64,000 nt of DNA from contig QHTK01000046.1 of the NCBI GenBank assembly GCA_003220795.1, positions 6,156-70,155 of the forward strand, given 5' to 3'. Each line of letters opens with the position of its first letter. The stretch's first letter is position 1. Source of the DNA: Gemmatimonadota bacterium. GTDB lineage: Bacteria > Gemmatimonadota > Gemmatimonadetes > Gemmatimonadales > GWC2-71-9. Positions 15,753-30,276 of this stretch are shown piece after piece. The notes beneath the pieces were generated by a model. It was not told where the DNA came from, did no database searches, and was given only the letters and a program-made list of their open reading frames with translations. The translations under genes and the position numbers were made by a program.

Positions 15753-15763
15753 GCGGGGCGGGC

Positions 15764-15851
15764 GCCTAACAAGCGCTTGAAGCTGGCGGGCGGTGATCGC
15801 TCTTAGGGAAGCGGAGTGTTGTGCGCTGACGCGCACGAACTATCGTTCAAC
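15764..15851 (+). repeat. attC left half only (class A2)
   Basis: GCCTAAC 15764-15770 ... GCGCACGAACTATCGTTCAAC, then unrelated sequence and the RBS of the next ORF; right arm missing. Confidence 0.7.
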
Positions 15852-15874
15852 AGCAAACAACACCGGAGGCCGAA

Positions 15875-16306: not shown

Positions 16307-16351
16307 CGGCGGTCGGTTTGTCGCCCCGGTTGGCGTGGTTTGGTGCGGGCT

Positions 16352-16492
16352 GCCTAACAAGCGCTTGAAGCTGGCGGGCGGTGATCGCTTTAAGGGAAGC
16401 GGAGTGTTGTGCCCCTGACGAGGCGCGGACTGTCGTCCACCAGCCTTGCGCCGGCGGGCGGGTCGCCCGCAGCTTAGCGCGATCCGTTAGGC
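16352..16492 (+). repeat. attC site, class A1, 141 bp
   Basis: GCCTAAC 16352-16358, GTTAGGC 16486-16492. Confidence 0.85.
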
Positions 16493-16608
16493 GGCGCCGC
16501 TCCAGCTCCTCTCTTGACGACTTGAAGCGTCAGTGTTCTGCTTCTTGCGCAGATGCCGACGCAGAAGGCCCTGCGTCAATAGACGCAAGCCACGCGAGGA
16601 GCCGGCCC

Positions 16609-17157
16609 ATGCCTACCCCAGTCGATCGGCGTGCAGTGGACCTAGCCGCTTTCCCAAACCTTGTCGTCATTTATCTAGGCATGCGAGTACGCACCTTCGC
16701 CGGCATCAAGACCTTGCTTGGCCTTGGCCCCCAAATCGACAAGGCCGGTGCTGCCCGGCCTGAAGGCCTGCTCCATTTCGAAAACAACATCATTTTCCGC
16801 CTCTTCCCGTTGCATATCGGCATGCGGTGGTACTGGAAGGACTTCGAGTCCATGGAGCGGTGGACGCGCTCAGAGCCGCACCGCATCTGGTGGCAGAACT
16901 TCATTCGTGACTCCGGTGGCACGGGGTTCTGGCATGAAGCGTATTTCATGCGCGGGGGAATGGAAGGTGTTTACGTCGACGTGAACCGCCCACCCGTGGG
17001 CTTCCAGGCGTTCGCGCGTGATGTGCCTATGCGCGGGCCCATGTTCTCCGCCCGACAGCGCCTCCAAGTCTCGGGAGATACCCCAGCACAACCGCCAGGC
17101 ATGACGGAGTCGGATCTGTACCAATCTGGGCGATCTGGCCGCGAGGGCGCCGCCTAA
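16609..17157 (+). CDS. Hypothetical protein (possibly DUF4188-like; recall-based)
   Basis: First ATG after the attC; WWQNFIRDSGGTGFWHEAYF motif; stop TAA inside R''. Confidence 0.45.
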   Translation: MPTPVDRRAVDLAAFPNLVVIYLGMRVRTFAGIKTLLGLGPQIDKAGAARPEGLLHFENNIIFRLFPLHIGMRWYWKDFESMERWTRSEPHRIWWQNFIRDSGGTGFWHEAYFMRGGMEGVYVDVNRPPVGFQAFARDVPMRGPMFSARQRLQVSGDTPAQPPGMTESDLYQSGRSGREGAA

Positions 17158-17275
17158 CAAGCGCTTGAAGCTGGCGGGCGTGATCGCCTTAAAGGAAGCG
17201 GCGTGTTGTGCCGCTGGCGCAGCACGGCCATCGTCCGGCACCTTAGGCCGGCGACACCCGCAAGCTCGGGGCGCT
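17152..17275 (+). repeat. Degenerate attC (left arm intact, right arm heavily mutated, R' lost)
   Basis: GCCTAAC 17152-17158 (TAA is the stop of ORF 16609-17157); right side CACCTTAGGCCGGCGACACCCGCAAGCTCGGGGCGC only loosely matches the consensus. Confidence 0.6.
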
Positions 17276-17299
17276 CTCTGAACCATAGAGGAGGGATAC

Positions 17300-17800
17300 A
17301 TGCCTTGTCGCCTTCACCTCCCACTGGCGGCCGCTCTGCTGGCGGGCAGCCCTTCGCTGCACGCACAGGAACCTGTTGTCGGCGCGCGCGATCCGGACGC
17401 CCTGTTCCACAGCAGCGACCCGAAGCTCAATACGAACAAGCAGGTTGCCTACCACATTGTAAAAGACCTGCTTGAGGCGGGGCACTGGGAACTGGCAGAC
17501 AAGTACCTAACCGAGCGGTACATCCAGCACAATCCGAACGCGGCGTCGGGACGCAATGGTGTGGTGAAGTTCTTCACCGAGGTCCGGAAGGTGACGCCCG
17601 TGCCAATCCCGCAGAAGATGAACACGAAAGTCGTGTCGGTGGTGGCGGAGGGCGATCTCGTGGTGGTCGCGTACGTCCACGAAGCGAAGGACGCCAAGGA
17701 TTCCTCACAGAGCTACACCACGACTTGGTTCGATATGTGGCGTTTCAAGGATGGCAAAGCGGACGAACACTGGGATCCGGCAACGCGCATAGGTCAATGA
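17300..17800 (+). CDS. Secreted SnoaL-like/NTF2-fold protein
   Basis: GAGGAGGG RBS; signal peptide; YLTERYIQHNPNAASGRNGVVKFF. Confidence 0.65.
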   Translation: MPCRLHLPLAAALLAGSPSLHAQEPVVGARDPDALFHSSDPKLNTNKQVAYHIVKDLLEAGHWELADKYLTERYIQHNPNAASGRNGVVKFFTEVRKVTPVPIPQKMNTKVVSVVAEGDLVVVAYVHEAKDAKDSSQSYTTTWFDMWRFKDGKADEHWDPATRIGQ

Positions 17801-17851
17801 TTGTTGGGGATGAACCCAAGAATCGCCGACCGAATCGATGAGCGGCCCCAA

Positions 17852-17927
17852 GGCGGGGCGCGGACTTCGTCCCACAGCCTTGCGCCGGTGGACGGGTCGC
17901 CCGCAGCTTAAGCGCGATCCGTTAGGC
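17852..17927 (+). repeat. attC right half only
   Basis: GGCGGGGCGCGGACTTCGTCCCACAGCCTTGCGCCGG...CGCAGCTTAAGCGCGATCCGTTAGGC, R' at 17921-17927; no R''/L''. Confidence 0.7.
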
Positions 17928-17974
17928 GGCACCAACGACGCACCTGGCGATTAGCACGCCAAGGAGGGGAGCTC

Positions 17975-18298
17975 ATGGCCGCGGTCAAACTCATAGTGAT
18001 GTACCCAATGCCGAAAGACGTGCAGGCCTTCGAGCGACTCTATCAGGATGAGCACGTACCTATGGCGGTGAAGAAGCTCGGCGGTAAGACAAAGCTCGTT
18101 GCGACCAAGGTCCAGGGTTCGCCTCAGGGCAAGCCCGCGTTTTACCGGATTGCCGAGGTCCATTTTCCATCGCTCGAAGCCCTGCAGGCCTGTGCCGCGT
18201 CGGCAGGTGGGAAGGAGACATTGGCGCACGCGGCGAAGATTTCGTCGGGCGGACCACCGATCATGCTGATTGCGGAGGAGCAGACCTTTGCCTTTTGA
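17975..18298 (+). CDS. EthD-domain protein
   Basis: AAGGAGGGG RBS; KLIVMYPMPKDVQAFERLYQDEHVPM ... 107 aa. Confidence 0.7.
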   Translation: MAAVKLIVMYPMPKDVQAFERLYQDEHVPMAVKKLGGKTKLVATKVQGSPQGKPAFYRIAEVHFPSLEALQACAASAGGKETLAHAAKISSGGPPIMLIAEEQTFAF

Positions 18299-18491
18299 GA
18301 GCGCCGCTGCAGGTGCCCCATCTTACAATAGCGCGGGTCTGCATTCGAACTGCGGCGAGGTTTCCAACCCAAAGTCACTATGAGGAGGTTCTCTGAGCCA
18401 ACCTGCAAAGAAGGGCACGCAGAAGTCCGCCAAGAGCACCACCGCGATCGGCAAGACGTTCAAGGGATTCACGGACGAGGAACGAATCGCG

Positions 18492-18884
18492 ATGAAGGAG
18501 CGCATCCAAGAGCTGAAGGCGGTGGCGCGTCGCGGCCCGCGCGCGGACAAGGCGGATGGGGAAACCGCCGTGCTCGCGAAGATCGCCGAGATGCCGGAAC
18601 CGGATCGCGCGATGGCCAAGCGGCTCCATGCTATCATCAAAGCCAGCACGCCAGCCCTCTCGGCGAGACCCTGGTACGGGATGCCCGCGTATGCCAAGAA
18701 CGGCAAGGTCGTCTGCTTCTTCCAAAGCGCGCAGAAGTTCAAGACGAGGTACGCGACGTTCGGCTTCAGCGACGCGGCGAACCTCGACGAAGGCGCCGTG
18801 TGGCCCACCGCCTTCGCGCTGAAGGAGTTGACCGCCGCCGAAGAGGCAAAGATCGGCGCGCTCGTGAAGAGAGCGGTGAGCTGA
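18492..18884 (+). CDS. DUF1801 (YdhG-like) protein
   Basis: [33 protein letters not shown]; N-terminus may extend to a non-ATG start near 18393 (AGGAGG upstream). Confidence 0.6.
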
Positions 18885-19042
18885 GGACTGATCTCGCCAC
18901 TGGGCCCGGCGCAAAGCGGCGGTGGCGTCCCCTTGGCCATCATCACCCGGCCGGTTGGTCGGTATGTCGTGTGATGGGTGTTGCTGCTGGCGAGGAGTTG
19001 CCCTGTTGCAGAACGCCAAGCCGTCAGCACCGGAGGAGAATC

Positions 19043-19507
19043 ATGCGATACCTTGCAGTCCTATTTTCGACGATAGGTCTCGCAGCCTGCAGCACGGCTC
19101 CCGTCACGCGCAGTGAATCCCATACAGTAACTCCCACGCAGGTACTTCCTGCTGAACTGCAGAACACGGCAATCGATTCGGTCGTACAATTCTTGCTTAC
19201 CGCAGCCGCTACTGATTTTCATACCCACCGCCCACCAGATCCTGTTCGCTTTCGTGTTGTGCGCATTGGGCACGTTATGACTCCTAGTGGAAGGGAACAG
19301 TACATGTTGTGCGGCGACTTTATGCCAACGGAGGAAAGAGGCAAGGCTGAGTGGACGCCTTTCGCGACGATCAAGACGTCGGGTTACGAACAATGGCTTG
19401 GGGCTCAAGCTGCGCGCTTTTGCCAGGGTTCATCGATCATATGGGACAAGGTGGGCGATCTGTCGTCCTCGCTGCAGACACGACTCGATTCTCTGCGACA
19501 TCTGTGA
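19043..19507 (+). CDS. Hypothetical lipoprotein
   Basis: GGAGGAG RBS; MRYLAVLFSTIGLAACS lipobox; the 18380-19507 track ORF is a frame run-on. Confidence 0.5.
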   Translation: MRYLAVLFSTIGLAACSTAPVTRSESHTVTPTQVLPAELQNTAIDSVVQFLLTAAATDFHTHRPPDPVRFRVVRIGHVMTPSGREQYMLCGDFMPTEERGKAEWTPFATIKTSGYEQWLGAQAARFCQGSSIIWDKVGDLSSSLQTRLDSLRHL

Positions 19508-19523
19508 TGGTGGTGAAGTTGCC

Positions 19524-19625
19524 GCCTAACACGCGCCTGAAGCTGACGGCGCCCGTCGGCTATGGTAGAATTCCATTTGTGATCATTGTTGCTCGGCGCC
19601 GCAGCTTAGGCGCACCCCGTTAGGC
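19524..19625 (+). repeat. attC site, class B, 102 bp
   Basis: GCCTAAC 19524-19530, GTTAGGC 19619-19625; near-identical arms and GGTAGAATT centre as the 11364 site. Confidence 0.8.
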
Positions 19626-19633
19626 GGCAGCAC

Positions 19634-20188
19634 ATGCCAAGGGGAGTTACGAGAACCAGAACGTTAGCGGCGGCACTCAGTGTCATCGCGTTGCTTCCAA
19701 CATCGCCGGCGGCGGATGTCACCTTCGCGATCATTGAGTACCGAGTGCTGCAGCGCGTAGGCCAGGTCCGTCTGACAACCGGCTTCGTGCACGATCCCGC
19801 GACGCAAATGGCTATGTTCGCAGATCTCGAATCCTTTGATCGCCAAGGCATCATCCTGATCGCAGGCGGTTCGGTTCGTCATTTTAAGCGACGTGAAACG
19901 ATCGGCTCTCATACGGTCGAGACGGCCATATCGGTCTATCCCGCGGTTGGGCACGGGTACCGGGGTGGCCTTGCAACGGCGGACGTCATCGTCACGGTCG
20001 ATGGAAGAAAGAAGATCGATTGTCCCTACGACCAGGGGCCAATCGAGTTGGCCGAACTTGACATCCTACCTCTCGAAGACATGATCTCAATCACCGGCTC
20101 CTACGACGACAAAGAGGTCCGGGGCGGGATCTCCTTGGACAGCACCCAAACGATAGACACGCCGTGGCTGGAACGACACGTGAGATGA
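19634..20188 (+). CDS. Secreted hypothetical protein
   Basis: Starts 9 nt after the class B attC; signal-like N-terminus. Confidence 0.4.
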   Translation: MPRGVTRTRTLAAALSVIALLPTSPAADVTFAIIEYRVLQRVGQVRLTTGFVHDPATQMAMFADLESFDRQGIILIAGGSVRHFKRRETIGSHTVETAISVYPAVGHGYRGGLATADVIVTVDGRKKIDCPYDQGPIELAELDILPLEDMISITGSYDDKEVRGGISLDSTQTIDTPWLERHVR

Positions 20189-20245
20189 AACGCACGAGGC
20201 TGGCTATCGGGTAGACTCGTGCGTGCCGAAGAGACCGAGACTACC

Positions 20246-20385
20246 GCCTAACAAGCGCTTGAGGCTGCCGGGCGGTGATCGCTTCAAGGGAAGCGGAATG
20301 TTGTGCCCTGGCGGGCGGGGACTGTCGTCCACTGCTCTTGCGCCGGCGGGCGAGTCGCCCGCAGCTTAAGCGCGATCCGCTAAGC
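20246..20385 (+). repeat. attC site, class A1, variant R' (GCTAAGC)
   Basis: GCCTAAC 20246-20252; R' position 20379-20385 reads GCTAAGC. Confidence 0.75.
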
Positions 20386-20403
20386 AGCCACGAGCTCTCG
20401 ATC

Positions 20404-20676
20404 ATGGCCGAAGCCGCCGCCCATGCCGCCGCAATCGCGCAGGCCATCAAGGCTTCGGGTACGCTCGTCCGGCTCGAGCCCCAGGATTTCTCTCGCATTC
20501 TGCATAAGCAAGATGCTCCGCTCGTCGTCAGAGCCCGGGGCGGTTTCTTTCGGACTCGCTGGTACTACCTGACGTCCTACAAGGGGCTGGCGTTCTTCGC
20601 TCTCTGTGACGAACCGTTGCCACTGCCGGGTAGGGCCGAGGTGATCGACGCGCGAAAGATCTGGGCACCGACGTAG
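20404..20676 (+). CDS. Hypothetical protein
   Basis: First ATG after attC 20246-20385. Confidence 0.35.
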   Translation: MAEAAAHAAAIAQAIKASGTLVRLEPQDFSRILHKQDAPLVVRARGGFFRTRWYYLTSYKGLAFFALCDEPLPLPGRAEVIDARKIWAPT

Positions 20677-20740
20677 CGGCTTCTCCAAGAGGAGCGCTCC
20701 ACTGTCTTCGTGCTGGCGCCCGCCGCGCAATCGACGACCA

Positions 20741-20806
20741 CGGAGCTCGTCCAACACCCTTGCGCTGGCGGGCGGCTCGCCCGCAGCTTAAGCGCGATCC
20801 GTAGGC
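20741..20806 (+). repeat. attC right half only (R' with 1-nt deletion)
   Basis: CGGAGCTCGTCCAACACCCTTGCGCTGGCGGGCGGCTCGCCCGCAGCTTAAGCGCGATCCGTAGGC. Confidence 0.65.
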
Positions 20807-20844
20807 AGCGCTGGCAAGTATCAGGCTCAAGAGAGAAAGGCCAC

Positions 20845-21093
20845 ATGGAACCAGGTGTGTTTCTTGCCGCGCTTCTAATATTCGTAGGGATTCCCGCTTA
20901 CACGGTGATCAGGATCGCTCGTCTGCGCGCCGCTCGTCTTCAATCACCATCGGCCGACGTCACTGAGCGGCTCGAGGCAGTTGAACATCGTGTCGAGGAC
21001 CTCCAACAGGAGCTAGCAGAAACACAGGAGCGTCTCGATTTCGCGGAGCGTTTGCTCAGCAAGGCACGGGAAGAGCGGCGGATTGGCAGCTAG
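20845..21093 (+). CDS. Small N-terminal-TM plus coiled-coil protein
   Basis: TM FLAALLIFVGIPAYTVI, then LQQELAETQERLDFAERLL; paralog of 12538-12816. Confidence 0.45.
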   Translation: MEPGVFLAALLIFVGIPAYTVIRIARLRAARLQSPSADVTERLEAVEHRVEDLQQELAETQERLDFAERLLSKAREERRIGS

Positions 21094-21104
21094 AGGCGAT
21101 TCCA

Positions 21105-21130
21105 CGCAGCTTCAACGCGATCCGTTTGGC
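21105..21130 (+). repeat. attC relic (L'/R' end)
   Basis: CGCAGCTTCAACGCGATCCGTTTGGC versus consensus CGCAGCTTAAGCGCGATCCGTTAGGC. Confidence 0.55.
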
Positions 21131-21156
21131 CGCTGCCGCCATTAACCACAGGGCTC

Positions 21157-21663
21157 ATGTCCGGCAAGCGTCACATTCTACTCGTCCTGGTCGTGGCGGT
21201 AGGTCTCGCGGTTGGCTTTCTTGTCGTACGCCAGCTGCGCACGCCCAGGTCTACCATCCTTGAACAGCCGCCGCCACCACCACCGGCCGTGGAGCCGCTC
21301 AAGCCGGCGCTTCAAGCAGATGCCGAAGGGCGATACGTCCCCGGCTATCGCTTTTCGGTAGGTCGTTTCCGATTCACCGGTTTCAGCCTTCGTCCGGAGG
21401 CTGTCGTCACATTCGCCCAGGCGACCTCCGGTACTGAGGAGGCAGTGTCCTGCCTCGAGGCTACCATCAATGCTCCTACTATCCATCTCCGCTGTGAATA
21501 CGCTCAGGTGGGCACCGTCACGATCGAGGGAAAGTTTCTCACTCGATTGGCGACGAACCGACTTGATCTCCCGGTCGTGTTCGCGGTCGTGACGGTTCGT
21601 GCTCCGAGCGGAGAGATCTTGTATAGTGCGCGGAACTCGTTCGTATGGGAGCCGGGCCGCTGA
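21157..21663 (+). CDS. Membrane-anchored hypothetical protein
   Basis: N-terminal TM ILLVLVVAVGLAVGFLVV, then a PPPPPP linker. Confidence 0.4.
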   Translation: MSGKRHILLVLVVAVGLAVGFLVVRQLRTPRSTILEQPPPPPPAVEPLKPALQADAEGRYVPGYRFSVGRFRFTGFSLRPEAVVTFAQATSGTEEAVSCLEATINAPTIHLRCEYAQVGTVTIEGKFLTRLATNRLDLPVVFAVVTVRAPSGEILYSARNSFVWEPGR

Positions 21664-21708
21664 TCGGTCATTCATTCGGCGCCGTAGTGCCCGACATCGT
21701 GCAGAGGA

Positions 21709-21722
21709 GCGATCCGTTAGGC
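21709..21722 (+). repeat. attC relic (R' end)
   Basis: GCGATCCGTTAGGC, exact match to the 3' terminus of class A sites. Confidence 0.5.
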
Positions 21723-21766
21723 AGCGACCCCCTTTCCCCCAACCCACCACACCCCTGGAGCAGCGG

Positions 21767-22132
21767 ATGATCCTCGGTCTACGTACCGTCATCTATCATG
21801 TACCCGACCTGGAACGCGCCACGGCGTGGTACAGCTCGGTCTTCGGCGTTCAACCCTACTTCGACGAGCCGTTCTACGTCGGCTTCAACGTTGGCGGCTA
21901 CGAGCTGGGGCTGGATCCGGACACGACGAGGGTACGTCCGGGCGCGGGTGGAGCGGTGGCCTACTGGGGCGTACCAGACGTCGACGCCGCGGTCCGGCAG
22001 TTCACTCGCGCCGGCGCGAGTCTCGAGGCGCCCGTGCAGAACGTCGGTGGCGACATTCGTGTGGCAACGATCGCCGATCCGTTTGGCAACTTGGTGGGCC
22101 TGATTGAGAATCCCCACTTCGCCGCTGCCTAA
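21767..22132 (+). CDS. VOC (glyoxalase) family protein
   Basis: LRTVIYHVPDLERATAWYSSVFG ... IADPFGNLVGLIE; stop TAA within a GCCTAAC relic. Confidence 0.75.
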   Translation: MILGLRTVIYHVPDLERATAWYSSVFGVQPYFDEPFYVGFNVGGYELGLDPDTTRVRPGAGGAVAYWGVPDVDAAVRQFTRAGASLEAPVQNVGGDIRVATIADPFGNLVGLIENPHFAAA

Positions 22133-22136
22133 CGAG
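22127..22136 (+). repeat. attC relic (R'' box only)
   Basis: GCCTAACGAG; its TAA is the stop codon of ORF 21767-22132. Confidence 0.4.
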
Positions 22137-22152
22137 CAACCGCACACAAGCC

Positions 22153-22785
22153 ATGCCGAGCCCGGCCGTCGACACCGTGGTCGCCGCGATACGTGCCTGC
22201 TCGGGCAGCGCCCATCGCCTGGTCGTGGCCATTGATGGACGCAGTGGTTCTGGCAAGAGCACCGTGGCGGAGGCGGTCGCTCGGGCCATCGACGCCGTCA
22301 TCGTGCCCTGCGATGATTTCTTCGCCGCTGGCGTGAGCGACGCGGAATGGGACCGCCGCACGCCAGCGCAACGGGCGGCAGATGCCATAGACTGGCGCCG
22401 GCTGAAACGCGAAGCGCTCGAGCCGTTGCGGACGGGTCGTCCGGCGCGTTGGCATGCCTTCGACTTCTCGGCCGGTCCCCGTCGTGACGGCACCTATCCT
22501 TTGCAAAGGACGCCGACCGAGCGTGGTCCGAAGCCTGTCGTGCTGCTCGACGGCGCCTATTCCGCGAGGCCCGAGCTCGCAGACGTTGTTGACCTGACCG
22601 TGCTGGTCGAGGCGGCCCCGACCACGCGTGAGACGCGCCTCGCAGCCCGTGAGGCGACAGATTTCCTCCGGCAGTGGCACGCCCGGTGGGATCCCGCCGA
22701 AGCGTACTACTTTACACACGTGTGTCCCCCCTCGACCTTCGACGTGGTTCTGCGAACTGAATCCTCGGAGGGCTGCATCTCGTGA
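22153..22785 (+). CDS. P-loop kinase (uridine-kinase-like)
   Basis: Walker A GRSGSGKST; LLDGAY Walker-B-like segment. Confidence 0.65.
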   Translation: MPSPAVDTVVAAIRACSGSAHRLVVAIDGRSGSGKSTVAEAVARAIDAVIVPCDDFFAAGVSDAEWDRRTPAQRAADAIDWRRLKREALEPLRTGRPARWHAFDFSAGPRRDGTYPLQRTPTERGPKPVVLLDGAYSARPELADVVDLTVLVEAAPTTRETRLAAREATDFLRQWHARWDPAEAYYFTHVCPPSTFDVVLRTESSEGCIS

Positions 22786-22961
22786 TTACACCGGACGCGG
22801 AGATCGAGCGCGTCGCCACGGCGCTGCACGACCACTGGCACGTCGCGGGGCTTGGGAGCTCCATCGACGTGCCATGACGCAGGCCAGCGATGGGCGGCCT
22901 CACCATACCAACAGGTTCGCATGGCGACCACCCGGATAAACGAGTGCCAGTCCCGGCTCGA

Positions 22962-22995
22962 GCCTAACAAGCACGTAAAGCTCGTGGGCCACGGC
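22962..22995 (+). repeat. Degenerate attC left arm
   Basis: GCCTAACAAGCACGTAAAGCTCGTGGGCCACGGC versus consensus GCCTAACAAGCGCTTGAAGCTGGCGGGCG. Confidence 0.5.
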
Positions 22996-23007
22996 TTGGA
23001 ACCGGTC

Positions 23008-23086
23008 GCCTAACAAGCGTTTGAAGCTGCCGGGCGGTTGCGCCGGCGCGCGAGTGCCCGCAGCTTAAAGCTGCGAGCCGTTAGGC
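23008..23086 (+). repeat. Compact attC site, 79 bp (class A arms, centre deleted)
   Basis: GCCTAAC 23008-23014, GTTAGGC 23080-23086; GCCTAACAAGCGTTTGAAGCTGCCGGGCGG joined directly to TTGCGCCGGCGCGCGAGTGCCCGCAGCTTAAAGCTGCGAGCCGTTAGGC. Confidence 0.75.
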
Positions 23087-23127
23087 CGCCGCTTCACATC
23101 AGCACGACTCTCGATGGGAGATCCGGT

Positions 23128-23640
23128 TTGCCCCCGCCACCCGATCTACGAGCGACGCTTGTTGCCGCGTGGAGGACCAACAACCGGGTCAGCGTCTACC
23201 TCGTCCAGCACCTACCGTCTGTGCTCTGGGACATCGCTATTCCTGGAGCGCCACAGCGCACGATCCGAATGATCTTGGCCCACCTTCACAACGCACGCTG
23301 CATGTGGATCAAGACGCTCGGACGGGAGCACGGGATCACCGCTCCCACTCGCGTCGATCATCGTCGCGTCGCGCGTCGGCAACTCATTGCCGCACTGAAA
23401 CGCAGTGGCAAGGGGATCGAGGCGCTTCTCACGTTGGGCCTGGCGGCGGAGGGCCGAGTGCCGCCGTCGAAGGGGTACGTGTGGCGGAACCTATCCCTCG
23501 ATGTTGGCCATGTGCTCACCTACTTCGTCGCGCATGAGGCTCATCACCGTGGTCAGATCGTCATGGTGGCCCGCCAGACGGGCCACCGGTTGCCGAGGGC
23601 GACCGCAGGCGGGCTGTGGCAATGGAAGCCTCACGCCTGA
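23128..23640 (+). CDS. DinB-family protein
   Basis: ILAHLHNARCMW ... YFVAHEAHHRGQI; no ATG or GTG after the attC, so TTG 23128 is proposed and the start is uncertain. Confidence 0.6.
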   Translation: MPPPPDLRATLVAAWRTNNRVSVYLVQHLPSVLWDIAIPGAPQRTIRMILAHLHNARCMWIKTLGREHGITAPTRVDHRRVARRQLIAALKRSGKGIEALLTLGLAAEGRVPPSKGYVWRNLSLDVGHVLTYFVAHEAHHRGQIVMVARQTGHRLPRATAGGLWQWKPHA

Positions 23641-23680
23641 TGATCTGCCTTACGCGTCCAACGCTCACAAAGGATCCGCT

Positions 23681-24604
23681 GTGATACGTTCCGGGTCCGC
23701 CGGCAACGTTATCCTCGTAACAGGCGCCGGCGGCCAAGTCGGGTCGAGGCTTTCGTCACTGTTACGCGCAGCCGGGCATCGCGTGTTGGCGGTCGATATT
23801 CACGCCAATGCCCTCGAGAACGTGGAATCGTGCGACATCAGGAGAGACGATCAGGTAGCGCGCCTATTCGCCTCGACCTCGATTCGAACCGTGGTCCACC
23901 TCGCGGCGATCCTTCCAACGGCCTCTCGAGCCGATCCCATCATAGCAACCGAAGTGAACCTGACCGGCACGCTCCGCTTGCTCCGCGAAGCGCTCACGCA
24001 TCAAGTAGAGCGTTTCGTCTTCGGGAGCTCCATGAGCGTCTACGGATCGTCGGGTGGGTCGCGTGCCCTGAACGAACACGACCGCGCGGCGCCAGACGAT
24101 CCCTACGGCGCAGCGAAACGGGCAGTGGAGCTTGCCGGTGAGAGCCTCGCCGTCACAACGGGCTTCGGTTTCGTCGCGTTGCGGATGGCGCGGGTCGTCG
24201 GCCCTGGTGCCAAGAGTACCGCATCGGGTTGGCGCTCCCAGATCTTTGACACCTTAGCGTCGCCTGGCCAACCTGCCATCGCCATCCCGTTCGCTCCCAC
24301 CGCCCGGTTATCGCTGGTACACGTCGATGACGTGGCCCGCATGTTGACCATTCTGGCCCAAGCAGCTGAACTTCCGCAACGTATTTACAACAGTCCGGCT
24401 GAGGTGTGGGAGACACAACACCTCGCAAATCTGGTCGAGCAAGTGACGAAGGTTCCTGTTCGGCTGGGTGAGGCCCAGGGAGGACCAATTCCCGATGGGA
24501 CGCGCTTTGTGCACGACTTTGGTTTTCGGCTCGGAGGCCTCGCGGACTATCTCTCGAGTAGCCGCGGGACCTCCCCCACATTACGATCGATCCTCGAGCC
24601 ATGA
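23681..24604 (+). CDS. NAD-dependent epimerase/dehydratase
   Basis: Rossmann motif VILVTGAGGQVGS; YGAAK catalytic motif (PYGAAKRAVE). Confidence 0.8.
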   Translation: MIRSGSAGNVILVTGAGGQVGSRLSSLLRAAGHRVLAVDIHANALENVESCDIRRDDQVARLFASTSIRTVVHLAAILPTASRADPIIATEVNLTGTLRLLREALTHQVERFVFGSSMSVYGSSGGSRALNEHDRAAPDDPYGAAKRAVELAGESLAVTTGFGFVALRMARVVGPGAKSTASGWRSQIFDTLASPGQPAIAIPFAPTARLSLVHVDDVARMLTILAQAAELPQRIYNSPAEVWETQHLANLVEQVTKVPVRLGEAQGGPIPDGTRFVHDFGFRLGGLADYLSSSRGTSPTLRSILEP

Positions 24605-24654
24605 GTCGCGGGGCGGGTTCGCTGCTTCCGCAAGGACCTCTCGAGAGGCTGCCG

Positions 24655-24692
24655 CTCTTGCGCCGGCGGGCGATTCGCCCGCAGCTTAAGCG
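24655..24692 (+). repeat. attC right-arm relic (no R')
   Basis: CTCTTGCGCCGGCGGGCGATTCGCCCGCAGCTTAAGCG immediately upstream of the ATG at 24698. Confidence 0.6.
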
Positions 24693-24697
24693 AGCTC

Positions 24698-25135
24698 ATG
24701 GCCGCGCCACTCCTACGTTGGCTCCGGGCTGTGCTATTCTTGGGCCTCGTGTATCTTGTCACCGGCATCACCTTCGCGGCGCTCGCCAGTCGGGCTGCGT
24801 CCAATCCGATGCGAATGACCTGGCGGCTCGCCGCCTGGGCGATCAGCGGCGCCGCGTTCGCGGCGCACATTGCGTACGAACAGGTTCGGCTGCGCAGCTC
24901 GCCTGGGCCAACGGCACTGCACGCATCGTTGGCGGTCGCCCTGGGGGCCTTCGCGCTGGCGGTCGCGGCGAATGTTCACGCGCAGGCCGCCGCAAGCCAC
25001 CAACCGTCCCATTTCCTCGCGCTCGTGCTATGGCCGGTCGTGACCGCACTGCCGGCGTTTGTTGTCGGCCTGGCCGCAGCTGCCGGCCTTGGCTTGGCGC
25101 GGGCCCGCGGTGACCGCAGTGAAGGGAGAGGGTGA
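24698..25135 (+). CDS. Membrane protein
   Basis: 4 hydrophobic segments; ATG directly after the attC relic. Confidence 0.45.
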   Translation: MAAPLLRWLRAVLFLGLVYLVTGITFAALASRAASNPMRMTWRLAAWAISGAAFAAHIAYEQVRLRSSPGPTALHASLAVALGAFALAVAANVHAQAAASHQPSHFLALVLWPVVTALPAFVVGLAAAAGLGLARARGDRSEGRG

Positions 25136-25138
25136 ACT

Positions 25139-25549
25139 ATGGTGCACGTTAACTATCTGGCCGTCCTCGTGGCAGCAGTCGCCGTGTTCGTGCTCGGCTG
25201 GCTCTGGTACAGTCCCCTGCTGTTCTACAAGCCGTGGATGCGGCTGCGCGGCATGGACCCTGTCGCCGCGATGGCTGGCGCGAAGATGCCCGGGGGGAAG
25301 CTGCTCATCGAGCTGGTCCGGTGCCTCGTCCTCGCCTACGTGATCGCGCGCTTCGTGGCCCTACTCGGCGTCAGCGGTGGGCTCGGCGCGGTGCACTTCG
25401 GCCTCTCCTTGTGGGTCGGGTTCCCGGTGATCCTGCTCACGGGATCGGTCCTCTGGGAGAACATCCCGTGGAAGCTCGCCGCCATCCATGCCGGTGACTG
25501 GCTCGTGAAGATGTTGGTGATACCGATCATCGTGAGCGCGTGGCGGTAG
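25139..25549 (+). CDS. DUF1761 membrane protein
   Basis: NYLAVLVAAVAVFVLGWLWYSPLLF... Confidence 0.6.
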   Translation: MVHVNYLAVLVAAVAVFVLGWLWYSPLLFYKPWMRLRGMDPVAAMAGAKMPGGKLLIELVRCLVLAYVIARFVALLGVSGGLGAVHFGLSLWVGFPVILLTGSVLWENIPWKLAAIHAGDWLVKMLVIPIIVSAWR

Positions 25550-25573
25550 CTCACGGGGGACGCCCTCAGACCT

Positions 25574-26116
25574 ATGGATTTCGACTTGGACCTCGCGATC
25601 GCAGTGCTGCGACGGTCGCCCGCCACGCTCCGGGCGCTGCTCGACGGTCTCAGCGACTCTTGGATCCGAGCCAACGAGGGTCCCGAAACATTCAGTCCGT
25701 TCGATGTGGTAGGACACCTCATCGACGGTGAGGAAACCGATTGGATCCCGCGCGCTCGCATCATTCTGGCGCAGGGGCCCGAACTCCGCTTCGAACCCTA
25801 CGATCGATTCCGCCACCGCGCACGCAACGTGGGGCGCTCCGCGGCGTCGCTCCTCGCCGAATTTGCGCGATTGCGGACGGCGAACGTACAGCAGCTCGAG
25901 TCCTGGAACCTTACCGCGACGGAGCTCGATCTCCCCGGTGAACACCCGACGTTGGGCCGTGTGACGCTGCGTCAGTTATTGGCCGCATGGGTGGTGCATG
26001 ACCTCGGACATGTGGCTCAGGTAGCGAGGGTGATGGCGAAGCAATACCGAGACCAGGTCGGGCCGTGGATCCCGTTTCTGCCGGTGCTCACCGACCATCC
26101 CGTACCGCGCTCATGA
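25574..26116 (+). CDS. DinB-family protein
   Basis: FDVVGHLIDGEETDW ... WVVHDLGHVAQVARV. Confidence 0.7.
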   Translation: MDFDLDLAIAVLRRSPATLRALLDGLSDSWIRANEGPETFSPFDVVGHLIDGEETDWIPRARIILAQGPELRFEPYDRFRHRARNVGRSAASLLAEFARLRTANVQQLESWNLTATELDLPGEHPTLGRVTLRQLLAAWVVHDLGHVAQVARVMAKQYRDQVGPWIPFLPVLTDHPVPRS

Positions 26117-26150
26117 TTCCGCCAGCCGACTACTCCCCGGGAGTGTCACC

Positions 26151-26576
26151 GTGTCCGAGCCTGTCGCGTACCCGTACGAGACGCGTCTCAACATCCTCTT
26201 TCCTCATCTCGCCGTTGTCGACCTCCAGCCGCTGATCGACGCCTGCCAGTTCCAGTGGTATAACCAGACCCTCTGCAAGGTGAATGACTCGGTCGTCCGA
26301 CTGGGCGTGATGCAGGGCGAGTATCACTGGCATCAGCACGACGCCGACGACGAGTTCTTCTATGTAGTAGAGGGCCAGTTCATCATCGATCTCGAGGGAC
26401 GCTCGGTCACACTCGGCCCGCGACAGGGCTTCGTGGTACCGCGGGGGGTCTTGCATCGCACTCGCGCTCCCGTGCGCAGCGTGATTCTCATGGTCGAGAC
26501 GGCGAGCATTGTGCCCACCGGGGACGCAGCGCGGCGCGGCGGTGGACACCCCAGCTCACGCCGCCGAGCCGATTGA
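26151..26576 (+). CDS. Cupin-domain protein
   Basis: GEYHWHQHDADDEFFYVVEG ... VVPRGVLHRTRA. Confidence 0.65.
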   Translation: MSEPVAYPYETRLNILFPHLAVVDLQPLIDACQFQWYNQTLCKVNDSVVRLGVMQGEYHWHQHDADDEFFYVVEGQFIIDLEGRSVTLGPRQGFVVPRGVLHRTRAPVRSVILMVETASIVPTGDAARRGGGHPSSRRRAD

Positions 26577-26617
26577 TCGATGCCGACCGTGCAAACAGAC
26601 GTGCTCGAGAGGTTTCG

Positions 26618-27136
26618 ATGAAACGTGTGCTGGTGATCGGTTCCGGTGGGACCGGGAAGACCACCGTCGCCCGGCGACTCGCCCAGCGGACGGGCCTTCC
26701 TCTCATCCACCTCGACCTCCTGTATTGGCGGCCCGGATGGCAGCCGACGCCGGGCGACGAATGGCAGCAGACCGTGGGGCGGCTTGTCGCCGGTGAAGAG
26801 TGGATCATCGACGGCAACTATGGAGGGACGCTCGACCTCCGTCTGACGGCCTGCGACACGGTCGTGTTCCTCGATTTGCCCCGCCTGCTGTGCCTCTGGC
26901 GTGTCCTCGTGCGGCAGCTGCGCTATTTTGGCCGTGAACGCCCCGAGCTTCCACCGGGGTGTCGCGAGCGATTGAGCTGGGAATTTCTCGTCTGGATATG
27001 GACCTATCCGTCGCGACGTCGGGGAGCCATTCTGGAGCGCTTGCAAGCGCTCGATCAGGGGAAGCGCGTCGCCATTCTGCGCAGTTCGTGCGAGATAGAC
27101 GACTTCATTGCCGGACGTCCTGGGGGAGCCTCATGA
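26618..27136 (+). CDS. Adenylate-kinase-related P-loop protein (topology-modulation FlaR-like)
   Basis: MKRVLVIGSGGTGKTT ... IHLDLLYWRPGW. Confidence 0.7.
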   Translation: MKRVLVIGSGGTGKTTVARRLAQRTGLPLIHLDLLYWRPGWQPTPGDEWQQTVGRLVAGEEWIIDGNYGGTLDLRLTACDTVVFLDLPRLLCLWRVLVRQLRYFGRERPELPPGCRERLSWEFLVWIWTYPSRRRGAILERLQALDQGKRVAILRSSCEIDDFIAGRPGGAS

Positions 27137-27840
27137 AGCCATTCTTGATCGTCGCCGTCTGCGCGGCCACAGGATTCGGCTGGACGCCTCGCTGCGCGTC
27201 GCAGGGCCAGCCACGCAGCCTCTTCAATGGTAAGGACCTCACGGGCTGGCACGTCGACGTCCCGGCCGCCGACTCCAACCCGCGGCTCCGCAGTCCGTTC
27301 CTCGTGCGCAATGGAGTGCTCGTGAGCCTGGGTGAGCCCCGCGGGCATCTCATCACGGATTCGAGCTACCGCGACTACCGGCTCGACGTCGAATACCGCT
27401 TCCCAGCAAAGCCCGGCAACTCCGGTGTGTTGGTACACGCGTCGACGCCGCGCGCCCTCTACGCGATGTTTCCGCGCTCGATCGAGGTGCAGTTGGAGCA
27501 CGGGAACGCCGGCGATTTCTGGTGCATTCTGGAAGACATCCACGTGCCCGACATGGAGCGTCGGCGCGGACCACCGGCGCAATGGGGGACCACGGAGGGC
27601 AAGGCGCGACGCATCCTGAACTTGACCGACAACTCCGAGAAGCCGGTCGGCGAGTGGAACACCATGGTGATCGAGGCCGTCGGCCGCGCGATCAGAGTCT
27701 GGGTCAACGGGGACGTGGTGAATGACGGCTCGGACGCGACGGCCGATCGCGGCCGGATCGCGCTGCAGTCGGAAGGGTCCGAGGTCGAGTTCCGGAAGGT
27801 CTCCCTGGCCCCGATCAGCAAGCTGACCGTCACGCCTTGA
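27133..27840 (+). CDS. DUF1080 (3-keto-disaccharide hydrolase-like) secreted protein
   Basis: Signal peptide; LFNGKDLTGW ... IALQSEGSEVEFRKVSL. Confidence 0.7.
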   Translation: MKPFLIVAVCAATGFGWTPRCASQGQPRSLFNGKDLTGWHVDVPAADSNPRLRSPFLVRNGVLVSLGEPRGHLITDSSYRDYRLDVEYRFPAKPGNSGVLVHASTPRALYAMFPRSIEVQLEHGNAGDFWCILEDIHVPDMERRRGPPAQWGTTEGKARRILNLTDNSEKPVGEWNTMVIEAVGRAIRVWVNGDVVNDGSDATADRGRIALQSEGSEVEFRKVSLAPISKLTVTP

Positions 27841-27890
27841 GTCAACACGCATGTGAAGCTGGCGAGCGCATGCACGGAGAGTAGAATTCC
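27841..27890 (+). repeat. Class B attC left-half relic
   Basis: GTCAACACGCATGTGAAGCTGGCGAGCGC...GTAGAATTCC versus class B GCCTAACACGCGCCTGAAGCTGACGGCGCC...GGTAGAATTCC; starts right after the stop at 27840. Confidence 0.5.
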
Positions 27891-27906
27891 AAACGAGGAG
27901 GCGCAC

Positions 27907-28119
27907 ATGGCTGAGAGCGTGTACAAAGTCATCGAGCTGATCGGGACCAGCCCCGAATCCTGGGAGAAAGCAGCTGCCGCAGCGATCAAGCGAGCGGCGA
28001 AAACGTTGCGCGACCTCCGAGTGGCCGAGATCTCGCAACTCGACATGCAGCTGAAAGACGGCAAGGTCGAGAGCTATCGCGCGAAGGTCAAAGTGTCCTT
28101 CAAGTACGAAGGGGACTAG
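27907..28119 (+). CDS. Dodecin-family flavin-binding protein
   Basis: 70 aa; VYKVIELIGTSPESWEKAAAAAI ... YRAKVKVSFKYE. Confidence 0.7.
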   Translation: MAESVYKVIELIGTSPESWEKAAAAAIKRAAKTLRDLRVAEISQLDMQLKDGKVESYRAKVKVSFKYEGD

Positions 28120-28131
28120 GCCCCAAGCCTC

Positions 28132-28872
28132 GTGTTCACGGAGTCGGCCGAGCTCTACGACCTCATCTACTCCAGTTCTAAGGACTACCGGGCCGAGACG
28201 GCGCACATCGCGGCGCTGCTGCGGTCCCTGCATCCGGCCTGCCGCACGCTGCTCGACGTAGGCTGCGGCACCGGCGAGCACGCTCGTCTGCTTGCCAGCC
28301 TCCACGGCTTCACGGTGGACGGCCTAGACCTGAATCCGGACTTCCTCCGGATTGCGCGGGCGAAGCACTCCGCCGGGCGATTTCTCGAGGCGGACATGAG
28401 CAATTTCCGGCTTCCCAGTCAGTACGACGCGATCCTCTGCCTGTTCAGCTCGATCGGCTACCTGAAGACGCTCGATCGGGTCAAACAAGCCCTGCACTGC
28501 TTCCGGAAGCATCTGGAACCCGACGGCGTCGTCATCGTCGAACCGTGGTTCTCGCCTGACAAAATGCACACGGGCCACCCTTCGAGCCGCGCAGCCGAGG
28601 CTCCAGGCATTCGGGTGCAGCGACTCGGCACCACTGAGGTGGAAGGTCGGCTCTCGCGCCTCCGCTTCGAGTATACGATTGAGACCGTGGACGGAACGCG
28701 GCACGCGACGGAAGTTCATGAATTGGGTCTCTTCACAGTCGAGGAGATGCTCTCAGCGTTCAGCGCCACACGCCTGTTGGCAGAGTATCAACCCGACGGA
28801 CTCGCTGGACGTGGCCTGTACATTGCCCGTCCTGCACCGGGTGGTCCCGACCCCCACCTTAGGCCGCAGTGA
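28132..28872 (+). CDS. Class I SAM-dependent methyltransferase
   Basis: YDLIYSS...LLDVGCGTGEH...DAILCLFSSIGY. Confidence 0.8.
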   Translation: MFTESAELYDLIYSSSKDYRAETAHIAALLRSLHPACRTLLDVGCGTGEHARLLASLHGFTVDGLDLNPDFLRIARAKHSAGRFLEADMSNFRLPSQYDAILCLFSSIGYLKTLDRVKQALHCFRKHLEPDGVVIVEPWFSPDKMHTGHPSSRAAEAPGIRVQRLGTTEVEGRLSRLRFEYTIETVDGTRHATEVHELGLFTVEEMLSAFSATRLLAEYQPDGLAGRGLYIARPAPGGPDPHLRPQ

Positions 28873-28914: not shown

Positions 28915-30276
28915 ATGGAGCGCCGCTTCGGCCTGATTCACGCCACGGCGCTCAATATGACGAACATGATCGGGATCGGACCGTTCATCACGATCCCGCT
29001 GCTCATGTCCGCGCTCGGCGGCCCGCAGGCCATGCTCGGCTGGCTGGTCGCTCTGGTGATCGTGCTGTGCGACAGCACGGTCTGGAGCGAGCTCGGGGCG
29101 GCGTTGCCGGGATCCGGCGGGTCGTTCGGGTATCTGCGCCAGGGCTATGGCGCCGAGCAGGTCGGCCGGCTGATGGGCTTTCTCTTCGTCTGGCAATTCG
29201 TGCTCAGTGGCCCCCTCGAGATCGCGTCCGGGTACATCGGCTTCGCCCAGTACTTGGGCTACATCTGGAAGGGAATCACGACGCGTCAGACGATGCTCGT
29301 CGTGACCATCATCGGGCTCGCGAACTTGGCACTCCTGTACCGGCGCATCAGATCGATCGCGACGATCACCGTGGCGCTCTGGATCGGCACGGTCGTCACC
29401 GTCATCGCGGTCGTCGCGACCGGCGTACGGCATTTCGACCCCAAGATCGCCTTCGACTTTCCGCCGGGAGCGTTCAACTTCTCCCGGGGCTTTCTCGTGG
29501 GCCTCGGCGCCGCCTCGCGGATCGGCGTATACGACTACCTCGGCTATTACGACGTCTGTTATATCGGCGACGAGGTCGAGAATCCCGGCCGGGTGATCCC
29601 GCGGTCGATTCTCATCAGCACGATGGCGGTCGCGGTGATCTATCTCGCGGTCAATCTCTCGATCATCGGCGTCGTCCCCTGGCGGGACTTCGTCCCGGCC
29701 GCGTCGCACCCGCAGTCCAACTTCATCGTGTCGGTTCTCATGGAACGGACGTACGGTCCGGGCATCGCGACGCTATTCACGGCGATGATCCTGTGGACCG
29801 CGTTCGGCTCGGTCTTCGCCCTCTTGCTCGGGTACTCGCGGGTGCCGTATGCGGCGGCGAAGGACGGCTACTTCTTCAAAGTCTTCGCGCGCCTCCATCC
29901 GTCCCAGGGATTCCCCAGCGTCTCGCTGGTCGTGCTGGGCGTCCTCTCGATCCTCGCCGGGTTCGTGTCGCTGGGCATGGTGATCGATGCATTGATCACG
30001 ACGCGGATTCTGGTGCAGTTCATCGGGCAGATCGGCGCGGTGACGTTGCTGCGCCGGCGGGCGCCGGACCTGCCGAGGCCGTATCGGATGTGGCTCTATC
30101 CCATGCCGAGTCTCGTCGCTCTGCTGGGATGGATCTTCATTTTCGCCACGACGCCGCCCATGGTGGTCGCGTTTGGACTGGGTGCGCTGCTGCTCGGTGT
30201 CGTGTGCTTCGGTGCTTGGTCGTGGAGAGGACGAACCTGGCCCTTCGCGGCGCGAGGTCTGGCGGCATCGCTCTGA
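28915..30276 (+). CDS. APC-family amino-acid permease
   Basis: 453 aa, about 12 TM; NMTNMIGIGPFITIP, GSGGSFGYL. Confidence 0.85.
   Translation: MERRFGLIHATALNMTNMIGIGPFITIPLLMSALGGPQAMLGWLVALVIVLCDSTVWSELGAALPGSGGSFGYLRQGYGAEQVGRLMGFLFVWQFVLSGPLEIASGYIGFAQYLGYIWKGITTRQTMLVVTIIGLANLALLYRRIRSIATITVALWIGTVVTVIAVVATGVRHFDPKIAFDFPPGAFNFSRGFLVGLGAASRIGVYDYLGYYDVCYIGDEVENPGRVIPRSILISTMAVAVIYLAVNLSIIGVVPWRDFVPAASHPQSNFIVSVLMERTYGPGIATLFTAMILWTAFGSVFALLLGYSRVPYAAAKDGYFFKVFARLHPSQGFPSVSLVVLGVLSILAGFVSLGMVIDALITTRILVQFIGQIGAVTLLRRRAPDLPRPYRMWLYPMPSLVALLGWIFIFATTPPMVVAFGLGALLLGVVCFGAWSWRGRTWPFAARGLAASL

Follow-up and report, generated by a model that had tools for sequence, protein, structure and literature searches.

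The window, a 64,000-nt stretch of a contig from an uncultured soil Gemmatimonadales MAG (G000; 103 contigs, 92% complete), sits within the cassette array of a chromosomal integron. The array extends from the contig edge, 6.1 kb to the left of the window (negative coordinates are upstream of the window on the same contig), to an amino-acid permease gene (28915-30276, + strand, Pfam), a conserved chromosomal gene that forms its distal boundary. It reaches the left edge at C2:82, with 9 further sites in those 6.1 kb; this end is an assembly break, and two more sites were found on a separate 5.6-kb contig, C18. About 40 site remnants were detected, with a mean column identity of 86%. The proximal, presumably young block of the window (1-16492, + strand) carries 19 attC sites of ~140 nt (GCCTAAC...GTTAGGC), 14 of them structurally intact.

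No Rfam family matched the repeats at the gathering threshold, so we built our own covariance models: CM R1 from the bottom strand of 23 intact sites in this genome and CM R2 solely from sites of the relatives G004 (SMAG_U11559), G005 and G008. CM R2 gave the same scores, ruling out circularity from the proximal-trained model. In 23 sites of the contig the core sites follow RYYYAAC/GTTRRRY (GCCTAAC / GTTAGGC, at least 6/7 complementarity), and the bottom strand folds into a long imperfect hairpin (RNAalifold consensus of 40 pairs, 6 with compensatory changes; DNA fold z = -5.1 and -5.3 for intact sites). The same repeat family was detected directly beside intI, above the TIGR02249 cut-off, in G005:C148 and G008:C15. 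The repeats are thus predicted to be attC sites, and their recombination by an integrase is putative, based on the association with intI in relatives. We called a site strictly intact if it had both arms, AAC at the end of R'', GTT at the start of R' and R boxes complementary at 6/7 positions or more.

Upstream of the window (CM R1 scores), two sites of a short 90-nt class (-6073 and -5459, 71 bits each) are followed by sites at -4962, -4121 and -3283 (154, 165 and 150 bits), -2582 and -1445 (154 and 160 bits), -823 (154 bits, point damage, CAC for AAC) and -276 (109 bits, point damage, GTC for GTT). The proximal block of the window has sites at 661 and 1733 (131 and 154 bits), 5911 and 7210 (157 and 164 bits), 9156 (149 bits), 11831, 12357 and 12827 (87, 141 and 139 bits), 13474, 14068, 14660 and 15171 (127, 155, 160 and 148 bits) and 16352 (153 bits). 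Left halves remain at 5359 (56 bits) and 15764 (54 bits), R' is lost at 7909 (120 bits), GGT replaces GTT at 8401 (141 bits, point damage), R'' has an insertion at 10583 (121 bits) and the site at 11364 (38 bits) is of class B. The sequence-only reading, all of whose listed sites were recovered at the coordinates given, had described the sites between 661 and 16492 as nearly all complete; 14 of the 19 in the window and 21 of the 28 proximal sites in all are intact, with further point damage at -823, -276, 8401 and 10583.

Distal to this block, all on the + strand, CM R1 hits lie at 17152 (61 bits), 17814 (37 bits), 19524 (56 bits), 20246 (144 bits), 20667 (30 bits), 21054 (12 bits), 23008 (50 bits) and 24597 (27 bits). 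The degenerate attC at 17152-17284 (57.5 bits with CM R2) keeps the left arm and central hairpin; its right arm has diverged, without R', and the R box is unpaired. A right-half attC upstream of the EthD gene (17852-17927) runs from the central hairpin to the R' GTTAGGC. Three distal sites had been read as complete, and two of them are intact: the 102-nt class B attC at 19524-19625 (7/7 R-box pairing, DNA fold z = -5.3, 87% identity with site 11364) and the 79-nt minimal attC at 23008-23086, with its arms joined and its centre missing (7/7 R-box pairing). The third, a full-length class A attC at 20246-20385 (153 bits with CM R2), has a mutated crossover core: its GTT triplet is lost, since R' reads GCTAAGC in place of GTTAGGC, the R box is unpaired in the fold and z is only -2.4.

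The remaining distal sites are fragments. A right-half attC at 20741-20806 has an R' minus one T (CCGTAGGC), an L'-R' end scrap, CGCAGCTTCAACGCGATCCGTTTGGC (21105-21130), lies directly 3' of the stop of ORF 20845-21093, and an R'-end scrap, GCGATCCGTTAGGC (21709-21722), lies between ORF 21157-21663 and a VOC gene. The R'' scrap GCCTAACGAGC (22127-22137), overlapping the VOC gene stop codon exactly at the gene junction, is weak alone (~0.1 chance matches are estimated in 12 kb). A left-arm relic, GCCTAACAAGCACGTAAAGCTCGTGGGC, occupies 22962-22995 (79% repeat match). The relic of a right arm at 24655-24692 (38 nt, 97% identity with an intact site) breaks off short of R' and extends into the start codon of a membrane-protein gene, and between the DUF1080 and dodecin genes there is a class B left-half relic, GTCAACACGCATGTGAAGCTGGCGAGCGC ... 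GTAGAATTCCA (27841-27895, 85% repeat match), the centre motif of which is shared with class B site 19524. Searching the distal part for generic R-box pairs returned only 19524 and 23008, the remaining hits being inside coding regions; there is no hidden attC of another class in the distal part. CM R1 detected no site above noise beyond the 24597 relic. Beyond 24.7 kb there was no correct-strand hit at E<0.01, the best weak ones being 35899-35960 (17.5 bits, E 0.04) and 45842-45887 (14 bits, E 0.26); 33979-40000 is collinear core flank in G001 (AG28, the sister species), G004 and G005.

Scoring with two models, the first check proposed with the sequence-only reading, demonstrated a fall in score and integrity along the array. 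The CM R2 median is 142 bits before 16.5 kb vs 14 bits after (Mann-Whitney p=5e-5), 22 of 28 proximal vs 1 of 12 distal sites reach at least 100 bits, and score is correlated with position (Spearman rho -0.58, p=8e-5). The structurally intact fraction drops from 21/28 before 16493 to 2/12 after (Fisher p=0.0012), and an unbiased change-point search placed the break between 16352 and 17152 (permutation p=0.003). The 28 proximal sites, 7 of which are damaged too, have no internal trend (rho -0.10); the distal block declines internally (rho -0.65, p=0.02). The polar decay that had been suggested was therefore detected as a drop from proximal to distal, but it is not monotonic: site quality drops in one step and then declines gradually within the distal block, rather than falling smoothly along the array.

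Because the contig begins inside the array, its direction is not readable from the contig itself. With GCCTAAC...GTTAGGC read on the + strand, the polarity of the attC sites places attI on the left, and the intI positions in relatives confirm this earlier placement: a frameshifted intI pseudogene lies at the array end farthest from the permease in G005:C123, and intI genes above the family cut-off lie upstream of same-polarity sites in G008:C15, G005:C148 and G026:C8. The TIGR02249 profile search of the whole 92%-complete assembly detected no IntI above cut-off. The candidates in this genome were Xer-like hits only (at most 90 bits), and the flank of G005:C148 matches the middle of contig C13 here; no IntI was detected anywhere in the assembly. 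No IntI was found in G001-G004, and G005 has several intI loci. As the array runs into the contig end, intI may be missing through an assembly gap; with IntI and attI absent from the contig, array direction and activity are predicted.

In G000, G001, G004 and G005 the array lies beside one and the same permease gene. The permease has 88-90% nucleotide identity in G001, G004, G005 and G008 and is present in 80 Gemmatimonadales loci; among the 55 of these checked, attC adjoins it only in G001, G004 and G005, which makes the integron locus specific to this genus. Comparison with relatives was the second proposed check, and in G001 the distal part is conserved and the proximal part variable, as predicted. 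Whole-genome DNA searches with -6155 to 16492 found almost nothing shared with G001 (two gene-sized matches at 74-76% and one short attC piece), while from 17852-28112 the EthD, kinase, epimerase, membrane protein, DUF1761, DUF1080 and dodecin genes match at 83-91%, close to the core flanks (85-90%). The decayed part is thus the part common to the sister species, at core-like identity, and the intact part is almost unshared.

The order of the shared part is not frozen (the DUF1761 and membrane-protein genes are swapped and DUF1080 is displaced), and the methyltransferase adjoining the permease here is absent in G001, so the distal end is not strictly frozen and some differences between the two genomes do not fit insertion at attI only. 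The SnoaL cassette matches that of G004 at 95%, more closely than the core does; recent movement of some distal material is possible. The half-site upstream of EthD also occurs upstream of EthD in G001 (88%), and the junction of the SnoaL 3' end with the truncated site at 17852 is common to G004:C118 (95%). Found in independent assemblies as well, these truncated half-sites are inherited breaks.

The gene families named earlier were recognised by Pfam. No attC separates EthD (17975-18298), DUF1801 (18492-18884) and the lipoprotein gene (19043-19507) in the block 17975-19507 (+ strand), suggesting that the three are fused former cassettes. This idea of merged cassettes, already put forward from sequence, is supported for DUF1801, which in G005:C133 is a stand-alone cassette (89% identical) with attC on both sides, both missing in this genome. 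The site-free block (24698-28872, + strand, Pfam) has eight small co-oriented genes, encoding a membrane protein, DUF1761, DinB_2, cupin, P-loop NTPase, DUF1080/3-keto-disaccharide hydrolase, dodecin and SAM methyltransferase, with intergenic gaps of 3-42 nt. Three of these genes have attC sites as neighbours in G004/G005/G002: upstream of dodecin, an attC-bounded cassette in congeners, there are attC sites in G004:C99 and G002:C74, the P-loop gene has an attC beside it in G004:C99, and DUF1761 is inside the G004:C118 array. GC3 is 0.69 in the proximal, 0.70 in the mid, 0.78 in the site-free block and 0.85 in the core (far block vs proximal, p=0.0002). The genes of the site-free block are former cassettes.

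We consider it likely that the locus is an age-ordered cassette array of a sedentary chromosomal integron. New cassettes would be inserted at attI, which would lie past the contig's left end, and would displace older ones toward the permease at 28.9 kb. As attC serves mobility alone, host selection would not protect the attC of a resident cassette, and sites would decay by point mutations of the AAC/GTT core, then by arm deletions leaving half-sites, and finally by complete loss. Cassettes with working sites could still be excised and lost, a ratchet by which the old end would become enriched for cassettes unable to leave; the outcome would be fusion into multi-gene blocks, drift to host codon composition and vertical inheritance. 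We infer the neutrality of decay and the excision-driven ratchet. The step and gradient in site quality, the vertical sharing of the decayed part and the former cassette status of several distal genes are shown here, as are the inheritance of truncated sites, the change in GC3 and a matching polarity beside intI in relatives. The earlier proposal of older, immobilised cassettes distal to attI is supported by both site integrity and the sharing with G001.

The same pattern could be produced by two episodes, in which the ancestral array lost integrase activity and decayed whole, and a new block was added later by an integrase that had been restored or that acted in trans from a different locus, ~17 kb marking the interruption. 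The step-like pattern without a trend in the proximal block would fit, as would the G001 array, decayed throughout and without IntI, and the several intI loci of G005 make action in trans possible. The gradient of the distal block and the GC3 rise confined to the far block point instead to graded age. We regard two episodes as a plausible but less probable history, one that refines the age-ordered array and does not contradict it.

It is unlikely that the array ends at ~24.7 kb and that the genes of 24.7-28.9 kb are ordinary chromosomal genes, never cassettes. Their lack of intervening attC, their GC3 closer to the core and the conservation of several of them by the permease in G001 would agree with this, but the class B relic at 27841 and the attC contexts of dodecin, the P-loop gene and DUF1761 in congeners do not, and in more distant relatives the position immediately upstream of the permease is taken by a GNAT gene, not by these genes. 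Chimeric joins at attC repeats in the metagenome bin might also create half-sites and scraps, given an assembly of 103 contigs that breaks at the left of the array and leaves two sites on C18. Such artefacts are very improbable: MAGs of other studies (AG28, SMAG_U11559) have these truncated sites and junctions too, and four genomes keep the distal part collinear with core flanks. Decay independent of position, with polarity by chance, is the least credible: the 7 damaged proximal sites would allow it, but the Fisher, change-point and Mann-Whitney tests and the repetition in G005:C123 and G026:C8 argue strongly against it.

In Vibrio the attC repeats are described as uniform over the whole array. 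Similar to the Vibrio cholerae superintegron, this is a long chromosomal array of small co-oriented, mostly promoterless ORFs, with homogeneous, species-typical attC (RYYYAAC/GTTRRRY cores, long imperfect hairpin) and a cassette pool common to congeners; unlike it, the host is a high-G+C member of Gemmatimonadota, intI is co-oriented with the cassettes in relatives, decay affects one third of the array and the assembly yielded no IntI. The array exceeds 10-19 homogeneous sites and occupies a fixed locus in relatives, which places it among sedentary chromosomal integrons (general properties in PMC4889954, PMC8618304). On this assembly it also falls under the operational definition of CALIN, a cluster of attC sites lacking integron-integrase (at least 2 attC within 4 kb, no intI nearby; Cury et al. 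2016, PMC4889954), with 28 sites in 22.6 kb and no intI on the contig. Unlike a CALIN, it runs into a contig end and holds intact and degenerate states ordered within one array; the CALIN status may be an artefact of the contig break. Xanthomonas chromosomal integrons are reported to have inactivated intI and lineage-specific arrays (bioRxiv 10.1101/2025.06.18.660453), and intI decay is also treated in Nemergut 2008 (PMC2426708). The two systems share acquisition of an ancestral platform at a fixed chromosomal site followed by vertical cassette inheritance, and frequent intI pseudogenisation (here G005:C123; no IntI in G001-G004), and differ in phylum and insertion site (here the amino-acid permease). 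The passages searched in these two papers deal with intI loss and mention no positional gradient of attC integrity.

Chromosomal integrons are commonly assumed to feed genes into the stable genome, attC loss fixing the cassette, and polar decay of arrays, expected in theory, is clearly documented here; to our knowledge, examples with the whole process readable in one locus are rare. The kind of element is already known and the process predicted, and no new kind of element is revealed. A single contig here combines cassettes that look mobile with sites showing point damage, half-sites, scraps and a block free of sites whose codon composition is partly host-like, and sister genomes reveal which parts are old. 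The locus is thereby a concrete system for the rate of attC decay and for excision bias in what survives, and it bears on the share of a soil bacterium's accessory genome that began as cassettes. We propose tentatively, at somewhat less than even confidence, that polar attC decay is a general, measurable ratchet in Gemmatimonadales chromosomal integrons, making cassettes stable, genus-wide, vertically inherited genes. If so, truncation breakpoints held in common could be used as markers in phylogeny, and the integrity of a site would tell roughly how long its cassette has been resident.

In three other genomes, AG20, AG21 and AG3, the permease has diverged homologues of the distal genes as neighbours, and attC is lacking altogether. 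Of five arrays examined, G001 is fully decayed (every site at most 51 bits), G032 is uniformly intact (seven sites, no decay), and polarity was detected in G000, G005:C123 and G026:C8. In G005:C123 the order is the intI pseudogene, sites of 134, 152 and 153 bits, a 22-bit relic, 3.6 kb free of sites and the permease. In G026:C8, from another family and with an intact intI above cut-off, the four nearest sites are intact and the three farthest are an R''-less site, a half-site and a 40-nt relic.

We detected a ~140-nt repeat that recurs between C2:82, at the very start of the contig, and ~24.7 kb of the window (C2:6156-70155), in a 3.30 Mb, 92%-complete genome (G000) of 103 contigs. Its + strand sequence is GCCTAAC-AAGCGCTTGAAGCTG ... 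CAGCTTAAGCGCGATCC-GTTAGGC, and its ends match the attC core consensus RYYYAAC/GTTRRRY. The alignment of 23 copies folds into a long imperfect hairpin of 40 pairs, of which 6 show compensatory changes, and the intact copies, as single-stranded DNA, fold much more stably than shuffled sequences (z about -5). The segments between repeats are small co-oriented ORFs, and no Rfam family matches the repeat. This repeat family directly adjoins integron integrase (intI) genes above the TIGR02249 cut-off in the congener G005 (G005:C148) and in a further relative (G008:C15). Core consensus, hairpin fold, ORFs between repeats and the intI-adjacent copies in relatives together identify the tract as an integron cassette array, specifically a sedentary chromosomal integron array that is, going by present evidence, operationally a CALIN.

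A covariance model built from 23 intact sites (R1) was run with filters off over the window, the adjoining 6.1 kb on its left and a second, small contig. Nearly all sites through 16352 scored 110-165 bits. The exceptions before 16.5 kb were two short 90-nt sites, the two left halves at 5359 and 15764, the site at 11831 with 87 bits and, at 38 bits, the class B site at 11364. Beyond 16.5 kb the model gave 61, 37, 56, 144, 30, 12, 50 and 27 bits, and right of 24.7 kb the scan found nothing above noise. A second model (R2), built from G004, G005 and G008 sites alone to avoid circularity, agreed with R1, giving a median of 142 bits for the proximal sites (left of ~16.5 kb) versus 14 for the distal ones (from there to the permease at 28915; Mann-Whitney p=5e-5), with rho -0.58 between bits and position. 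Structural intactness, defined independently of sequence class by both arms, AAC and GTT cores and R-box complementarity of at least 6/7, was found in 21/28 sites before 16493 versus 2/12 after (Fisher p=0.0012). With no preset boundary, the change-point fell between 16352 and 17152 (permutation p=0.003).

The sequence-only reading had proposed polar decay along the array. The drop in quality from proximal to distal was confirmed, but no score trend was detected among the 28 proximal sites; the overall shape is a step followed by a gradient inside the distal part. Every relic in that reading is present in the sequence. Three distal sites had been called complete, and only those at 19524 and 23008 are structurally intact, while the one at 20246, although full length, has lost GTT (R' is GCTAAGC) and its R box does not form. 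Among the proximal sites, the one at 8401 carries GGT in place of GTT. A generic search of the distal part for hidden site classes (complementary xxxxAAC/GTTxxxx) returned only known sites outside coding regions, and the intergenic gaps at 24.7-28.9 kb measure 3-42 nt. The breakpoints of the half-sites at 5359-5440, 15764-15850, 17152-17250, 17852-17927 and 20741-20806 cluster around the conserved hairpin in the site's centre (GTGCCCC..GGGGCAC): left halves stop just past it, and right halves begin at it or just past it; the hairpin may be a favoured deletion point.

The permease (28915-30276) is a conserved chromosomal gene found in 80 loci, with 88-90% nucleotide identity in G001, G004, G005 and G008, and the right flank is collinear with the sister species G001 to at least 37 kb. 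In a whole-genome DNA search against G001, -6155 to 16492 gave only two gene-sized matches (74-76%) and one short attC-site piece. From 17852 to 28112, the region shares with G001 EthD with its half-site (88%), kinase (85%), epimerase (83%), membrane protein (83%), DUF1761 (91%), DUF1080 (89%) and dodecin (90%), identities in the same range as the core flank (85-90%). The sharing begins at 17852, beside the change-point in site quality. G001 has no IntI and its entire array scores at most 51 bits. The expectation of a conserved distal and a variable proximal part is borne out, but gene order is kept only in part: in G001 the membrane gene and DUF1761 have changed places, DUF1080 precedes the epimerase and the methyltransferase is absent, so "fixed" is too strong for the distal block.

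The right-half site before EthD is also present in G001, cut at nearly the same point, and the junction of the SnoaL 3' end with its truncated site (...GATGAGCG/GCCCCAA...) is common to G004:C118 at 95%. G000, G001 and G004 come from separate assemblies and studies, which speaks against an assembly artefact; on this comparison, the recurrence of the breaks shows that the truncated attC sites are inherited. The SnoaL cassette (17256-17851) matches G004:C118 at 95% identity, more than the 88-90% found for core genes, suggesting recent exchange with the attC already truncated, possibly by homologous recombination or within a larger unit. The string GAGCTCATGGCCGCG, start codon included, is present both at the EthD start (17968-17983) and at the cut of the 24655 relic (24691-24706), which may be chance or a shared junction.

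Former cassettes were recognized in the distal part. DUF1801 is 89% identical to a G005:C133 gene flanked by attC on each side, the homology beginning ~15 nt past the upstream R' and stopping before the downstream site. Neither flanking attC remains in G000, which for this gene supports the earlier suggestion of merged cassettes. In the congeners' contigs G004:C99 and G002:C74 a class A attC lies just before the dodecin gene, which in G000 instead follows a class B left arm and the class B centre motif GTAGAATTCCA; the P-loop gene adjoins attC in G004:C99, and DUF1761 lies within the G004:C118 array. More distant relatives carry a GNAT gene, not the genes of the site-free block, directly upstream of the permease, and therefore the block arrived in the genus of G000. 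Third-position G+C rises from 0.69 for proximal cassettes and 0.70 at 16.5-24.6 kb to 0.78 for the site-free block, against 0.85 for core genes (far block versus proximal, p=0.0002), the raised value of the far block being in agreement with longer residence.

Right of the permease, 30288-33900 is present in G000 and G001, but G004 and G005 have no such stretch separating their permease from the homologue of 33979. Its 382-aa ORF (31878-33026) has 77-78% nucleotide homologues within array contexts, between DUF1761 and attC relics in G004:C118 and upstream of dodecin in G002:C74. The GNAT gene (31068-31862) is directly upstream of the permease in ~25 more distant genomes, and the permease neighbourhood has therefore been rearranged in the genus of G000.

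An attI on the left had been assumed. It is not seen on this contig, which starts inside the array, and a profile search detected no IntI above the family cut-off in the whole 92%-complete assembly, but relatives support the direction. In G005:C123, moving away from the permease, 3.6 kb without sites is followed by a 22-bit relic, then by three sites scoring 153, 152 and 134 bits, and finally by an intI pseudogene in three frames (family-model positions 26-122, 133-252 and 249-281). G008:C15, G005:C148 and G026:C8 each have an intI above the cut-off that is oriented like the cassettes and located upstream of sites with the polarity seen in G000. Among the 41 related genomes searched, IntI exceeded the cut-off in 21 and in none of G000-G004. 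Contig C89 of G000, with its first 2.8 kb matching the far flank of the G005 locus, may join the array at its left end.

In the G026:C8 array, from another family, the four intI-nearest sites and site 6 are intact, and site 5 has lost R''. The final three comprise a site without R'', a 63-nt right half carrying GTC and a 40-nt relic in which both cores are mutated. This array's sites at 13216-13347 and 5933-6063 carry the same R'' replacement (TTCAGAGGAGCGCC... for GCCTAACCAGCGCC...), which looks like duplication or copying of a damaged site inside the array. G032 has seven intact sites and no decay. In three further genomes (AG20, AG21, AG3) the region upstream of the permease contains diverged homologues of the ORFs at 20845-21093 and 21157-21663, and a scan with filters off detected no attC there.

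Taken together, we showed that the array is age-ordered and that its old end, without recombination sites, is vertically inherited. In a resident cassette the site would no longer be selected for and would decay, old cassettes keeping working sites would be removed by excision, and the distal remainder would consist of cassettes unable to leave. In a possible variant of this explanation, integrase activity would have been interrupted before a new burst of insertions, which would account for the step. Integrons were already reported from Gemmatimonadota (PMC8618304), and Cury et al. proposed CALIN with degenerate attC as a step towards cassette stabilisation (PMC4889954); IntI decay is well described (PMC2426708). 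A positional gradient of attC integrity was not found described in the literature searched, with most subscription journals outside its coverage. The kind of system is already known; the array offers a clear and verifiable case of a process that had been predicted.

Two IntI genes of G005 exceed the cut-off (G005:C148 and G005:C104), and their chromosomal flanks are present in G000 (G000:C13:13509-17558 and G000:C16:39500-40608, respectively), where no IntI was found; thus the number and location of integron platforms vary within the genus. A separate 5.6-kb contig of G000 (C18) carries two intact attC sites of 160 and 162 bits (L007; 1359-1498 and 1966-2106), followed on the opposite strand by a 499-aa serine hydrolase of the beta-lactamase family (PF00144; 2131-3630), and could represent a further fragment of the array or a second array end.
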